Below are positions 51,801 to 57,800 of a stretch of DNA of 64,000 nt, in pieces; position 1 is the first letter of the stretch, and each line of letters starts with the position of its first letter. The stretch is taken from NCBI GenBank assembly GCA_000165345.1, contig CM000435.1, forward strand, positions 288,001-352,000, given 5' to 3'. Position numbers: made by a program.

Positions 51801-54800
51801 ATTTCCAAAAATAAGATTCTTTGTTTCTTTTAAGAAGAAATCTTGTAAAGTATTTAAAGTTTGAGATAGAGTGTTAGAGATAAGAATAATATTACTAAGT
51901 AATCTTGCAGAAAATCCTTCAGCATCTGTTAAATATACCGGACATGGATGAGTTCCAACAAGTTTATCAATTGGAACAGGAAAATCTGATTCCTTAAGTT
52001 CAACAGCATCTTCCAAATCAATGATTTTAAGATCTTTGTAGAAATCTATATCAAGTATATCTTTATATGTGAGATTATAAACATTATTTTCAGTTTTGAA
52101 TTGTTTTGAAATATTTACCAAAATATTTCCTTGATGAAAATCACAATGAATTCTAAAAGATCTAAATCTTTTCCACTTTCCTCTTGAAAAATCTTCTAAT
52201 TCTTCTGGATAGAATGATGTTCCTCCTCTATGAAATAGATCCAAAAGATATAATAATCTTCTATAAAGATTTACTGAGAAAATTATTGTTTTATCAGTAT
52301 AATTATTAATCCAAATATTTATAGAATTCTCCAAAAGTCTTGCTTTAGATTCTACATTAATCTTCTCATCTGACCTTAATGAAGGGAACTTGGAGTCATA
52401 GATTCGAATACTTTCTTCTAAGATTGCATTTACTCTATTTTTTAAATAATTTAAGAGATTTGGATAATCAATAAGTTCTGAAATTATTGAAGAAATTGCA
52501 GGACCATCAATAAACTCCATTAATAGAACATTTCTTGAAATCATTTTTCGATTTGGTTGTAAGAATACGCTATATATGGATGGATGAAGCTTAGATTTAG
52601 AAGCACCATATGTACTTGAGGCCATTCTAGAGTAAATGATCAACTCATGATTAAAATGGTAAAGAAAGTCGTTGGTTCTTCCATCAACTTTTGCTACAAT
52701 TTTCAAAGGAAACTTCTTGGCTTTGTTTGAATGAAGGCATCTCACTCTTAGAGATGATTTCTTTCCGAGTTCATAGACACACCCAGTAAATAGTTCAAAT
52801 CTCTCTTTCTTTTCCTTTTCCTCCTTTTCCTTTCCCTCATCTTTTCCCTCTTCTTTTCCCTCCTTCCCTTCCTCTTCTTTACTTTTCTTCCCCTCATCAC
52901 TCTCCTTCCCCTCATCCCTCCCCTCCCCCTCCTCCTCATCCACCTCCTCCACAGGACTCTTTATCATTGCAAAAATTGTCGAAGCTTCCTTTCCTTGAGA
53001 AGATACCAAAAGCTCTCCAGTCGATGAAACTTTTGGACAATCAATTATGCCCGAAAATTCATTACAAAAATCTTTAAGTCTTAATATACTACATTTCTTA
53101 TAAACCTGACTCAAATGTTTATACCTCTTGTAAAAAACCATTGGAGCATACCAAGTATTTTCTTGTCCTTCTGGAATAAAACATAAATTAATTCGCCTCA
53201 ACTTATCCATTGTTACCACTAAACCATCATCTTGAAAACTATTATTCTTTTCCTCTAGTAATACCTCATTCTCGCTCCCATGAAGCCCAAATAACCTTAT
53301 ACTCCCCTCTGCATAAATAGATCTCGTGATCGGGCACAATACCAAGCAAAATGAGTACACCAAATGAAGTATTTTCTTTCTAATCCTCATTTTTGCTTAT
53401 TTTGCCCTCTTTTACTCACTTTATCATTTCAAAAATATTTACTCCTTTTCTTTCTTTTCCTAATTTTTATGATCCATGCTTTTCCCGCGCATCCTTGTTC
53501 AATTTTCCCGCCCGTTATTAAATACCTTGGATCTTCATGTTAAAAAATTAGTAAAAGAAATATAATATAAACAAGTTCATTATTTTTGTGTTTAATTTAT
53601 TGATATCATAGATTGAAATGTTTTTTCTTTTTTTTAATTTTTCTTTCTTTTCCTTTTTCTTATTCTGATAAGGATTTGTTTATAATGTTTCGAGATCAAA
53701 AGTTCTAATTACTATTAAGATAAAAATGAAAGAATTAGGGAGAAAAAAGAGTATATAGAAACAGGAAGAGGATATTTTAATATTTTCATTGGAGTTTTGA
53801 TTAATGTGTTTTTTTTCTTTGTTTTTCCCTTTATATAGATATTAATTTGTTGTTATATAAATAGTTGGAAGAAGCGAAAAAAAAAAAAGAACAAGAAAAA
53901 AGAAAACAAGAAAATAATGATAATTAGATGTATGAAATTACCTTTACTTTAGAAATTTTGGTTTTCATTTTTTTATTTATTTTTTATTTATTTTTTTGAC
54001 TTCACACGTATTAATATAATAAGTACCGCAATTGTGTGGTAGTTAAATTGTAATCCTCTCAGCGCTGGACTTTGTGTAAATTAAAGTGAGTTTTGCACTT
54101 TTAAAAGAAAAGAAAATTCACAATTATAAAGAATTGTATTAAAAGTGAATAAGTACAGTGATAATATATAAAGAGTGTGAAAGAAATTTGTATATATTTT
54201 TGTATATAATAGAAAGAATGATTGGGTCAAGAAAATCTAAGGAAGAGTTATACTATAAGATTTCTTTAGTAACAACAATACTTATATTCTGGATTTGTTC
54301 AAGATCTGTAGGTAAGTTGAAATAAAAATAGAAATAAAATAAAACAAAACAAAACAATTCAAATCCCAAATCAACTCTTTAATTTATATATTTGTAGTTT
54401 TATCTATATCTCTCACAACAATATTCTTAGTTTTGTCTTATATTGGAAATAAGTTTGTTTTTGGAACAAAATCTAAATATGAAGAAGATTTACCAAGATT
54501 GATTTCAGATAATGTAATTTTGAAAAAAATCTATGAATTTATTACAAATGGAATTCTTGTTAATTTTGTTTTATCTATTATATATATTACATTATATTTC
54601 ACATTAAGATCAGAAATTAAAGGAATAGAAGTTATTCACAGAGGCATTTTTGATCATTTAGCTCCAAAACTTGCAGAACATTCAAGAAATCTAATAGAAT
54701 CTGGTGAAGGAAAATTTGAAGTTATCTCAAGTAATAGAAATTTTGATGGTATTAGTTTAATTATACCAATTAGAGATGAAGATGAATTTATTAGTAAAAC

Positions 54801-57800
54801 AATTTCTTTTACTCTTGGTTTAAATAATAAGAACTTACTTAAAGAAATCATTGTTGTTGATGATTGCTCTAAGAGAGAAGTTTCTGATTTACTTAATAAA
54901 GAACTTCCAAGTTCTTATTTAAAATATATTAAAGTTATTAGATTAGACAAATGTGAAGGTTTAATTAGAAGTCGAATTCTTGGTGCTGATGCTTCTAAAT
55001 CTAGTGTAATAGTATTTATGGATGGTCATTGTAGGCCTAAAGAAAATTGGATTGAACCTTTAATTAATAGACTTAAAGAAAAACCAAAAGCTATAGTTTG
55101 TCCAATGATTGAAGATATAGATAGATATACTTGGAAAGATTTAGGTACTTTTGGATTAAAAATGATGTTTGATTGGAATTTTGAATTTAATTGGTATGAA
55201 GATTTTACTGATGTAATTCCAATAGCATCAGGAGGATTATATGCAATAACAAGAGAATGGTGGGAAGAATCTGGTAAATATGATCCAGGAATGTTAGAAT
55301 GGGGAGGAGAGAATATTGAACAATCAATAAGAATTTGGAGATGTGGAGGAGAAATAGTAGCAGAAAAGAAGAGTAGAGTAGGACATATATTTAAAAGAGA
55401 TCCAAAACCTAATCCAGAGAATAAATTAGTTTTACAAGTACAAAGAAATCAGAAAAGAGCTGCAATGGTTTGGTTAGATAAGAAAAGATATAAATACTTT
55501 GAGACAATTCATGATGTTGTGAAAAGTTTGAATGAAACTCAGAGTGGTGTAGATTTGGAACAAAGACATAGCATTAAAGAAAGATTAAAATGTAAACCAT
55601 TTTCTTGGTATGTTGATAAATTTAGAGCTTCATTTGATAGAGGTGGTTTGCTATTGGATAACTTTAGACATTTTAAACATAGAAAGAGTGGACTTTGTTT
55701 AACAGCTTCTTTAAATGAAGTAGTTACTGGAACAGAAGATAAAGCAGTAGTATTTAAAGAATGTAATGAAAGAGATGATACTCAGAAGTGGAATGTAATA
55801 TTAGGAAGGAGATTAATATTAAATAGAAGAGTAGGATTAGGATGTCTCACAAGGGGACCAAGTAATGTAGTAGAGAATTCAATTTTAAGAGTAGTTCCTT
55901 GTGAATTTAAGAAAGCTTTAGAAGGTTATAATGACTCACAATATTGGAACATAGATGCTAATGATGATTTATTATTTGATCATGGTTATGAAGATTTATC
56001 TCCAATGGAATCTTCAAAGCTTAGAAACTCACTAAGATTGTTTAACAGAATTAATAGTATTCCATTTAGTAATGATGGGAATGATAGAATTTCTGTGAAT
56101 GGAGAATATGCTTTTAATCCATCAAATAGATGTGTCACAAATTTGAATGATAAAGCTGTAATGAAGAGTTGTCCACATGAAGAAAATGAGGACTATATAT
56201 TTGACCCAATAAAGATGGGGAAGTTTATGTAGAGGAGGTGGGAGGAGTGGATTGGCAGGACTGGGAGAAGAGGATGAGAGAACGAGAGGAAGAGAGGAGA
56301 GGACTGGGAGAAGAGGAGTGGGAAAATAGAGGACGAAAGAAAAGGACGAGAGAATGAGAGGAGAGGACTGAGAGAAGAGGAGTGGGAAAATAGAGGACGA
56401 AAGAAGAGGACGAGAGAATGAGAGGAGAGGACTGGGAGAAGAGGACGAGAGAACGAGAGGAAGAGAGGAGAGGACGAGAGAATGAGAGGAGTACAAAAAC
56501 AGGAAACGAAAAGGAAAGGAAATGAATAGAGGAGTGATAAAAGCCGTGAGACAATAGAATTTTAGATATTAAATTAAGATGAGCTAAAATTACTCTTTAT
56601 TAGACAATTCTCTTTGTTTGTTTAATTTGCATAAGTTATTGGAAAAAATGACATAAAAGGACAAAAGTCTTTATTTCCACAATTATTTTTAGTTTTAGGT
56701 GAAATCATGGGAGATGAATTTGAATAATAACTTGAAGATTTTGAAACAACCCATGAATGTTTACTTGGATGAATAGTAAAGAAAGGATGTTTTAAAGCAT
56801 CTTTTGGATGTATTCTAAATTTGTAATCCAAAGTAAGAAGTTTTGAAAGTAAATCAAGAGCTTGAACAGTAACTAAATCTTGATTTTCTTGAGTAATTAA
56901 GAAATCAAAAGTTCTTGGATCAGTAAAAATTGGACTTGTTGAATTAAAGATTTTTTTGGTTCTTTTAAGATAAGAAAAAGTAATATCATCAGAAATTGTT
57001 CCATTATATTTATTAGATATAGAAATAATATTATCTCCTCCAAGTAATGAAGCAATTTTAACAATTTGGTCATTATTGTCCCAACCTGGAAAAAGTACAT
57101 CAGGACTTAATGAATTCTTAAGAAAAATACCAACAAATGTTTTTGGATATTTTGTAAATACTCTAGTAAAATAATTGGTCTTTAAAGTACCTAATCTGAA
57201 AAGCATTTGTGAGAATAAACAACCTACTGACCAAGAATCCACAGAATAATCATAATTTCTGATTCCTAAAAGAAGTTCTGGTGCTTTATAATATTTGGAA
57301 GCAACTCTTGGACTAAAATCAGGATCATCTTTTGAATAATATTCTGCTAATCCCCAATCAATAATTTTTAAAGATTCTTTATTTATATCAATTACAATAT
57401 TTTGTGGTTTAATATCTCTATGAAATACTCCTAAAGAATTTGCATAAGAAAGTCCTTGTAATAATTGTCTCATGTAATTTTGAAGATCTATATATGTAAG
57501 TTTTGGAAGAAGTGAATAAAATTGTTCATTATTAATATATTCCATAACAAGTCCAATATGTTTTTTAACACTAATAGATTTTTGATTCAAATTTTTTATT
57601 GGATTATGATATTTAACAATATCTAAAAGTTTTATAATCGAATTTTTCCCTTGTATTTGATCATATAATTGTGAATTTTCTAATAATAATGTTTGATTAA
57701 CATGATTATCAGAATAACCATTAAGTAATTTAAGTATAGAAACTTCTCGAATAATTTTCCATTCTTGTACATTCTTTAATTCTTTTAAAGCAACAGGAAA

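Follow-up and report, generated by a model that had tools for sequence, protein, structure and literature searches.

A probable two-exon structure for a GT27-type polypeptide GalNAc-transferase gene on chromosome 7 of Cryptosporidium parvum

Described GT27 enzymes and the identity of the locus

The GT27 enzymes with solved structures (human T2, 2FFU; T12, 6PXU; mouse T1, 1XHB; and TgGalNAc-T3 of Toxoplasma, 6S24) share a GT-A domain with the DxH motif, a His ligand and WGGEN, together with a C-terminal ricin-type lectin domain. Active ppGalNAc-Ts have been described in Cryptosporidium in a review (PMC6939170), and the loci cgd6_1960, cgd5_690 and cgd7_4160 have been listed as GalNAc-T candidates (PMC9713705). 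The protein analysed here aligned with the four solved enzymes at sequence E values of 1e-47 to 1e-52 and at Foldseek E values between 1e-28 and 1e-34 with more than 510 columns aligned; its identity was only 22-25%. Unlike the solved enzymes, which have one type II anchor, it showed three predicted N-terminal hydrophobic helices, and its third lectin repeat is without a QxW motif. The three paralogues belong to the same family and have the same domain order, but they lie at other loci and are longer (about 800 aa). Cryptosporidium paralogue sequences (P0027-P0031) shared 37-46% identity with the query, of which the alignments covered 58-86%.

The window analysed was a stretch of 64,000 nucleotides from Cryptosporidium parvum chromosome 7 (GCA_000165345.1, contig CM000435.1, positions 288,001 to 352,000), and all positions given here are counted from its first letter. 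It contains a GT27 polypeptide N-acetylgalactosaminyltransferase gene that very probably has two coding exons, with the 86-nt intron at 54312-54397 removed and a product of 642 aa. Sequence comparison showed that the spliced product was the same as QOY40443.1 and WRK33296.1, with no residue different. The gene span in CP141124.1 was 2015 nt, equal to 54218-56232, and the intron span was annotated there too; with the identical 642-aa product, this means that CPATCC_003292 shares exon 1, the 86-nt intron and exon 2. The window gene is therefore CPATCC_003292 of C. parvum IOWA-ATCC (QOY40443.1; WRK33296.1 in CP141124.1), without any difference between them, and the single base in 8015 that differed between the window and CP141124.1 was outside the gene. 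CPATCC_003292 very likely corresponds to the locus cgd7_1310, which appears in the Isaza 2015 supplement in the dN/dS table only (identity 0.975, dN/dS 0.22), where gene structure is absent.

The mini-exon and the 86-nt intron are already in the current public annotation; the structure is correct but ordinary, and known. At least seven protein models were public for this one gene, with lengths of 404, 545, 631, 642, 647, 669 and 717-738 aa. The product is labelled 'T4' in GenBank (AAQ95176), and the gene may be the experimentally characterised 'Cp-ppGalNAc-T4', a link made by the GenBank name only. Bhat 2013 and DeCicco RePass 2018 are the primary studies of the ppGalNAc-Ts of Cryptosporidium.

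Exon and intron structure

The coordinates of the gene and of its predicted features are shown in Table 1. The spliced coding sequence had a length of 1929 nt, divisible by 3, and was stop-free inside. Exon 1 starts with the ATG at 54218-54220 and its 3' boundary reads CTGTAG/GTAAGT, while the intron ends in ATATTTGTAG. The sequence-only reading had proposed a 5' mini-exon joined in phase across an 86-nt GT-AG intron, and its coordinates held base for base. It had also described an ATG 215 bp upstream of a TTG, opening a 31-codon exon, and this agreed with the ATG at 54218 and the TTG at 54433, where a 599-codon ORF opens. The same reading had found the long ORF to be without an ATG near its 5' end; the main-ORF frame was open from 54343 only and its first in-frame ATG was at 55018 (M239), directly 5' of DxH. 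Use of the upstream ATG in an unspliced frame was checked as well, and the frame from 54218 reached a stop four codons beyond the donor (…SRSVGKLK followed by the stop). One detail had to be corrected: the last residue of the exon-1 peptide had been given as Gly, from the GGT of the unspliced reading, and is Val instead, since the junction codon is G/TT.

Table 1. Positions of the gene features in the window
Feature	Position	Strand	Details
Exon 1	54218..54311	+	94 nt, 31 codons and first base of codon 32
Predicted helix 2	54308..54462	+	residues 31-53; straddles intron; strongest membrane-segment candidate
Spliceosomal intron (very probable)	54312..54397	+	86 nt, phase 1, GTAAGT...TTTGTAG
Exon 2	54398..56232	+	ends with TAG stop; helices 2 and 3, stem, GT-A and ricin-type domains
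Stretch separating 642-aa and 631-aa models	54398..54430	+	33 nt; rival AG 54429-54430
Third hydrophobic helix (predicted)	54550..54606	+	residues 83-101, GILVNFVLSIIYITLYFTL; hydropathy scan, AlphaFold2
GT-A catalytic region	54751..55623	+	residues about 150-440
D240-G-H242 (DxH)	55021-55029	+	aligns to DCH of human GalNAc-T12
WGGEN	55300-55314	+	residues 333-337; aligns to WGGEN of T12
H361	55384-55386	+	VGH359-361 aligns to VGH of T12
Ricin-type lectin domain	55666..56229	+	two QxW motifs
QKW (Q494KW)	55783-55791	+	ricin QxW motif
QYW (Q546YW)	55939-55947	+	ricin QxW motif
44-nt GT..AG stretch	56171..56214	+	second intron in some public models

Under the two-exon model, the intron is of the U2-type GT-AG class in phase 1. 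Its GC content was 19%, against 28% in the exons. A branch-point-like TTAAT motif was seen by eye about 20 nt 5' of the intron AG. The alternative donor at 54308 (GTAGGT) was rejected because it is in phase 0 and an in-phase AG acceptor is absent from the sequence. The Rfam scan of 53300-56700 gave no matches. A conserved element is present 5' of the gene, at 54022-54068. The hexamer GTAAGT had 15 occurrences in the window where 21.9 were expected and was thus unenriched, so the motif by itself carries no weight; what raises the intron call above chance is its conservation across all the loci compared.

Eight Cryptosporidium loci were compared (C. parvum, GCA_004936735.2, two Logan assemblies, C. 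canis, C. felis, C. xiaoi and C. muris). Exon 1 was exactly 94 nt in all eight, and the donor GT lay at the same base in each (GTAAGT in six, GTAAGC and GTAGGT in the others). A frame-restoring AG acceptor was present in 8/8 loci, with the intron in phase 1 after codon 31 throughout, and the orthologous products were 642 aa in six loci and 640 aa and 639 aa in the others. The introns had lengths of 55, 62, 65, 72, 86, 94, 94 and 158 nt. Reading through them met stops in 7 of the 8 loci, while the 55-nt intron of C. canis shifted the frame. Intron identity to C. parvum was near-random (0.38-0.57, against 0.34-0.50 for shuffled controls), whereas exon 1 identity was 0.59-0.83 across the loci, and the exons flanking the intron were 0.81-0.83 identical in the nearest species. 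Differences in exon 1 from the nearest species were distributed over codon positions as 4/3/10; when exon 1 was taken together with the 93 coding nt that open exon 2, 22 of 35 substitutions were at the third position (p = 3e-4). The position and phase of the intron are thus conserved while its length and sequence drift.

At the transcript level, every intron of the IOWA-ATCC annotation has been stated to be RNA-seq supported, a statement that is annotation-wide and not gene-specific (PMC8744675). An exact search of metagenome contigs for the spliced junction, as a pattern common to the three acceptor models, gave 0 matches, and the spliced N-terminus was found in none of the Logan members of the protein cluster. 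All Logan contigs with the 599-aa ORF carried exon 1 and the intron intact, which indicates that those contigs are genomic and unspliced.

Competing gene models

The second in-frame AG, at 54430 (TTCTTAG/TT), had gone unmentioned in the sequence-only reading. Its use, as the sole form or as an isoform, would lengthen the intron to 119 nt and leave a protein of 631 aa without residues 33-43 (LSISLTTIFLV), and was considered unlikely. This acceptor is canonical and in frame with a short pyrimidine run just 5', and it is used by the public models KAL5367440.1, WKS78812.1 and C. hominis KAL3126919.1, the first two of which likewise have a gene span of 2015 nt. However, C. parvum and C. xiaoi were the only 2 of the 8 species to have this AG. 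The 33 nt that it would remove were stop-free and without indel in the eight species, and were conserved as protein (S34 in 7/8, L37 in 7/8, T38 in 8/8 and F41 in 7/8), whereas the intron upstream of them showed random-level identity. The same 33 nt make up half of the strongest hydrophobic helix, and 54397 would be the first AG 3' of the branch-point-like TTAAT. In C. parvum, the conserved sequence thus points to splicing at 54397 instead of 54430.

It was also judged improbable that both acceptors are used in C. parvum to produce 642-aa and 631-aa isoforms. If this were true, 11 residues of helix 2 would be present in one isoform and missing from the other, with three helices becoming two, and the number of membrane passes, hence how the catalytic domain is anchored or oriented, would change between them. 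Splicing would then control the topology or localisation of an O-glycosylation enzyme, although alternative splicing is very rare in this genome.

The 647-aa model (AAQ95176.2, UniProt Q6TBQ8) concerns the same gene, with the same exon 1 and donor and 99% identity, but starts exon 2 at 54383 and adds YIFVV at the junction. It stands in the public record, is also the cluster representative, and contained the most hydrophobic 19-mer among the three models (-2.8). Its implied intron, 54312-54382, ends in AA and not AG in the window sequence, and neither the acceptor AG nor a counterpart of the five residues was present in the seven other species, which leaves this model very unlikely. A strain polymorphism that would create the AG was looked for in L001 and L009-L015, 8 further assemblies or contigs of C. 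parvum, and all had the same bases at this acceptor.

A gene with no 5' intron, starting inside the long ORF with the upstream ATG-ORF as a chance uORF, matches public models of 545 aa (the older XP_628316.1, no Met) and 404 aa (such as C. hominis XP_668612.1, from M239) and the lack of GTAAGT enrichment in the window, but it is highly improbable and effectively refuted by the comparative data. An in-frame ATG is absent before 55018, and a start at M239 loses the invariant catalytic-domain residues E159 to G227. In addition, all eight species, even the distant C. muris, keep the length, the frame and the encoded protein sequence of exon 1.

At the 3' end, the public models differ over the 44-nt GT..AG stretch. 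Its removal gives 669 aa, the length reported for cgd7_1310 (PMC9713705), and models from C. hominis and C. tyzzeri (717-738 aa) also treat it as an intron. All 8 species retain the unspliced C-terminus, and the supposed donor is a TGT codon for Cys that reads TGC in C. muris; the stretch is probably not a real intron. At each end of the protein, the comparisons support the 642-aa model. This model is favoured because the 11 codons 3' of acceptor 54397, cut by the 631-aa model, never varied in length and kept their frame in 8/8 species, and because the 647-aa model requires a non-AG acceptor.

Encoded protein and its relevance

By sequence and modelled fold, the 642-aa product is a GT27-type polypeptide GalNAc-transferase with its catalytic residues intact. 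The catalytic region gave 74.5 bits for PF00535 (Glycos_transf_2; cut-off 23.3) and 23.3 bits for PF02709 (cut-off 23). Sequence alignment to human GalNAc-T12, T2 and T1 gave E values of 1e-50 to 1e-52, and 16 GalNAc-T sequences from the PDB aligned at E <= 1e-30. The AlphaFold2 model had a pLDDT of 87.3, and all of its top 50 Foldseek matches were GalNAc-transferases. The DxH and WGGEN motifs, earlier called intact by eye, aligned with those of GalNAc-T12, and D240, H242, H361, W333, G334, E336 and N337 were invariant in the 43-sequence alignment. The gene product, presumed in the sequence-only reading to be an active initiator of mucin-type O-glycosylation, would transfer GalNAc from UDP-GalNAc to Ser/Thr of peptides.

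The ricin-type domain fell marginally short in the same profile search, where PF00652 scored 28.8 bits (E = 1.5e-6) and the cut-off was 29. The QxW repeats had been described as intact, which applies to two of the three motifs, QxW being absent from the third repeat when it was scanned. Foldseek alignments to full-length two-domain GalNAc-T structures covered 514-575 columns and span both domains, which indicates that the lectin fold is present though the QxW repeats are incomplete.

Exon 1 codes for a basic tail at the N-terminus (MIGSRKSKEELYYK), followed by a hydrophobic run of only about 13 residues (15-27). In the AlphaFold2 model, residues 8-27, 31-53 and 83-101 form hydrophobic helices; the exon junction is at residues 31/32, and the hydropathy scan showed three minima in the N-terminal region. 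The best 19-mer was at residues 30-48 (score 0.6), and its C. muris counterpart was by far the strongest (-4.1). The strongest membrane segment and the third helix are thus predicted to lie in exon 2. The suggestion that exon 1 encodes a type II signal anchor was consequently only partly right: the basic tail and a first short helix are there, but three helices are predicted and the best segment is in exon 2. Published counts of transmembrane domains are 2 for cgd7_1310 and 3 for cgd6_1960 (PMC9713705). With a basic N-tail and three predicted hydrophobic helices, the membrane-anchor region would exceed a simple type II anchor in complexity. Under the two-exon model, exon 1 would supply the start codon, the basic cytosolic tail and one of the three N-terminal hydrophobic helices, namely helix 1, and exon 2 would supply the second and strongest helix, the third helix, the Mn2+-dependent GT-A domain and the ricin-type lectin domain.

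The relevance of the structure is small beyond annotation hygiene. Both gp40/15 and gp900 are among the mucin-like vaccine antigens of Cryptosporidium that enzymes of this family glycosylate, and the right N-terminus and C-terminus are needed for expressing, tagging or knocking out this O-GalNAc-transferase.

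Two-exon structure of the gene

The AT-rich, eukaryotic DNA of the window (31% GC) contained a 599-codon ORF running from TTG at 54433 to TAG at 56230-56232. The frame of this ORF was open upstream to 54343 and free of ATG there, and its first in-frame ATG was at 55018. An upstream ATG at 54218, 215 nt 5' of the TTG, opened 31 codons and one base ending in CTGTAG/GTAAGT and, if unspliced, met a stop four codons past the donor. The acceptor ATATTTGTAG/TT, 86 bases past the donor, restored the main frame, and splicing gave a CDS of 1929 nt coding for 642 aa. The exon and intron observation of the sequence-only reading was confirmed: its coordinates, both splice sites, the length of the intron and its phase were all correct. 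The last residue of its exon 1 peptide, Gly (GGT), was wrong, the junction codon being G/TT (Val).

The locus was compared with orthologous loci from seven other Cryptosporidium lineages (eight loci), among which synteny was kept, with a minus-strand gene of about 1450 aa upstream and kinase genes downstream. Exon 1 was exactly 94 nt from the ATG and was followed by GT in all eight loci, the donors being GTAAGT in six, GTAAGC and GTAGGT. A frame-restoring AG acceptor was also present in all eight, the product being 642 aa long in six lineages and 640 and 639 aa long in the other two. Intron lengths were 55, 62, 65, 72, 86, 94, 94 and 158 nt, and the C. parvum intron showed global identities of 0.38-0.57 to the others (shuffled controls, 0.34-0.50). 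Against the nearest species, identity was 0.83 in exon 1 and 0.81 at the start of exon 2, and third codon positions held 22 of the 35 differences (p = 3e-4). GTAAGT alone was without enrichment in the window. The cross-species conservation carries the weight of the evidence and argues strongly for the proposed intron.

Features of the GalNAc-transferase gene and its surroundings (window positions unless stated)
Feature	Position	Strand	Remark
Neighbour gene, 1483-aa protein	48939-53390	-	Signal-peptide-like N-terminus; no Pfam hit on record
Bipartite element	54022-54068		Also at about 1905-1935 in L002 and in upstream regions of L006, L007 and L008 (fetched loci)
Exon 1	54218-54311	+	
Intron	54312-54397	+	
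Exon 2	54398-56232	+	
44-nt GT..AG stretch	56171-56214		Taken as a 3' intron by the public 717-738 aa models of C. hominis and C. tyzzeri
Purine-rich (GA) minisatellite	56257-56517		
Neighbour gene, 520-aa protein kinase	56622-58184	-	Hydrophobic N-terminus

Enzyme family and membrane anchor

A profile search, suggested as a check on the motifs read by eye, placed Glycos_transf_2 (74.5 bits) and Glyco_transf_7C (23.3 bits, cut-off 23) above cut-off on Pfam, while Ricin_B_lectin reached 28.8 bits against a cut-off of 29. The top PDB-sequence matches were human GalNAc-T12, T2 and T1 (E 1e-50 to 1e-52), and the human FLDCHC, WGGEN and VGH aligned with FMDGHC, WGGEN and VGH of the C. parvum protein. 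Residues D240, H242, W333, G334, E336, N337 and H361 were invariant in a 43-sequence alignment. All of the top 50 Foldseek hits of the AlphaFold2 model (pLDDT 87.3) were GalNAc-transferases, and almost every alignment was 514-575 columns long, spanning the catalytic as well as the lectin domain. The assignment to GT27 with DxH and WGGEN was thus borne out by profile, aligned sequence, invariance and fold. The ricin QxW repeats had been read as intact; the lectin domain was recovered in the fold alignment, but only two QxW motifs were found (residues 494 and 546). Because of the motif alignments, the invariant residues and the GalNAc-transferase-only fold matches, the catalytic machinery looks intact and the protein is predicted to be active. 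Active ppGalNAc-Ts are described in Cryptosporidium, according to a review (PMC6939170).

The AlphaFold2 model contained three N-terminal helices (residues 8-27, 31-53 and 83-101). A hydropathy scan on the Hessa apparent free-energy scale showed three minima in the seven intestinal species and, in C. muris, a single very strong segment (residues 32-50, -4.1), the counterpart of helix 2. The exon junction lies between residues 31 and 32, so exon 1 contributes the basic tail plus some 13 hydrophobic residues. The claim that exon 1 encodes the signal anchor stood in this part only, as the best anchor candidate, together with the third helix, lies in exon 2. A cytosolic N-terminus with one or three passes would place the catalytic domain in the lumen.

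Flanking DNA

A conserved non-coding bipartite element, 76-158 nt 5' of the start codon, consisted of GTACCGCAAnTGTG followed, after a spacer of 6-24 nt, by the palindrome TCAGCGCTGA, which reads TCAGCGCTGG in C. parvum. The element was found in five intestinal Cryptosporidium lineages, in which the adjoining intergenic DNA was unalignable, occurred once within the 64-kb window, and had no match in Rfam. A possible role is that of a promoter or transcription-start element, either for the GalNAc-T gene or for both genes of the divergent pair. Both neighbour genes kept their synteny across Cryptosporidium.

The GA minisatellite (period about 64 nt, 3.4 copies, 89% match) separated the GalNAc-T gene from the convergent kinase gene and varied in length among C. 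parvum assemblies. Measured from the stop codon to a fixed anchor, the spacer was 328 nt long in both the window and CP141124.1, while a Logan contig had 200 nt and CM109967.1 had 157 nt; five Logan contigs stopped about 105 nt past the stop codon, close to the start of the repeat. The repeat may serve as a typing marker, or some length differences may reflect assembly collapse.

Public annotation and competing models

Protein search returned Cryptosporidium orthologues with 67-99% identity, the best-match cluster holding 14 public sequences of the GalNAc-T gene. One of these, QOY40443.1 / WRK33296.1 (C. parvum IOWA-ATCC, CPATCC_003292, 642 aa), was identical to the spliced product, and the CPATCC_003292 gene spans 2015 nt in CP141124.1, the same as 54218-56232. 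One base differed from CP141124.1 across the surrounding 8015 nt. The window therefore belongs to chromosome 7 of C. parvum, and the proposed model equals the current public annotation. Introns of the IOWA-ATCC annotation are 100% RNA-seq-supported and all its genes manually curated (PMC8744675). Other deposited forms were of 404 aa (C. hominis, from M239), 545 aa (original Iowa II, no Met), 631 aa, 647 aa and 717-738 aa.

The 642-aa model is very probably right. The 631-aa form keeps exon 1, the donor and the 2015-nt span, with a 119-nt intron ending at the second in-frame AG (54430), and has a slim chance of being real, alone or as a minor isoform. However, the 33 nt it removes were stop-free and without indel in eight species, were conserved as protein (T38 in eight of eight; S34, L37 and F41 in seven), and code for part of the strongest hydrophobic helix; just two of eight species carried the rival AG, and the first AG past a TTAAT branch-point-like motif would be that at 54397. 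The 647-aa form (AAQ95176.2), with its acceptor 15 nt upstream, is less likely still, as its intron would end in AA, neither an AG nor the extra residues occurred at the site in any of the seven other species, and each of 8 further C. parvum assemblies or contigs inspected had the same bases. The remaining deposited models also rank below the 631-aa form.

Splicing of the 44-nt stretch swaps the conserved C-terminus for a low-complexity tail from the downstream repeat. This 3' intron is disfavoured: the unspliced C-terminus (CP..D.F.FDP[IV]K) was kept in all eight species, its "donor" is a Cys codon (TGT, TGC in C. muris), and none of the seven other lineages examined had the repeat past its stop codon. 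The 669 aa listed for cgd7_1310, a GalNAc-T candidate (PMC9713705), imply the same intron, and adding it to the 642-aa model gave exactly this length. Because of this listing, its reproduction and the fitting chromosomal position, the locus is very likely cgd7_1310.

The two-exon structure is already in public annotation and is not new; the residual interest is confined to the conflict among the deposited models and to the slight possibility that an alternative acceptor is used.
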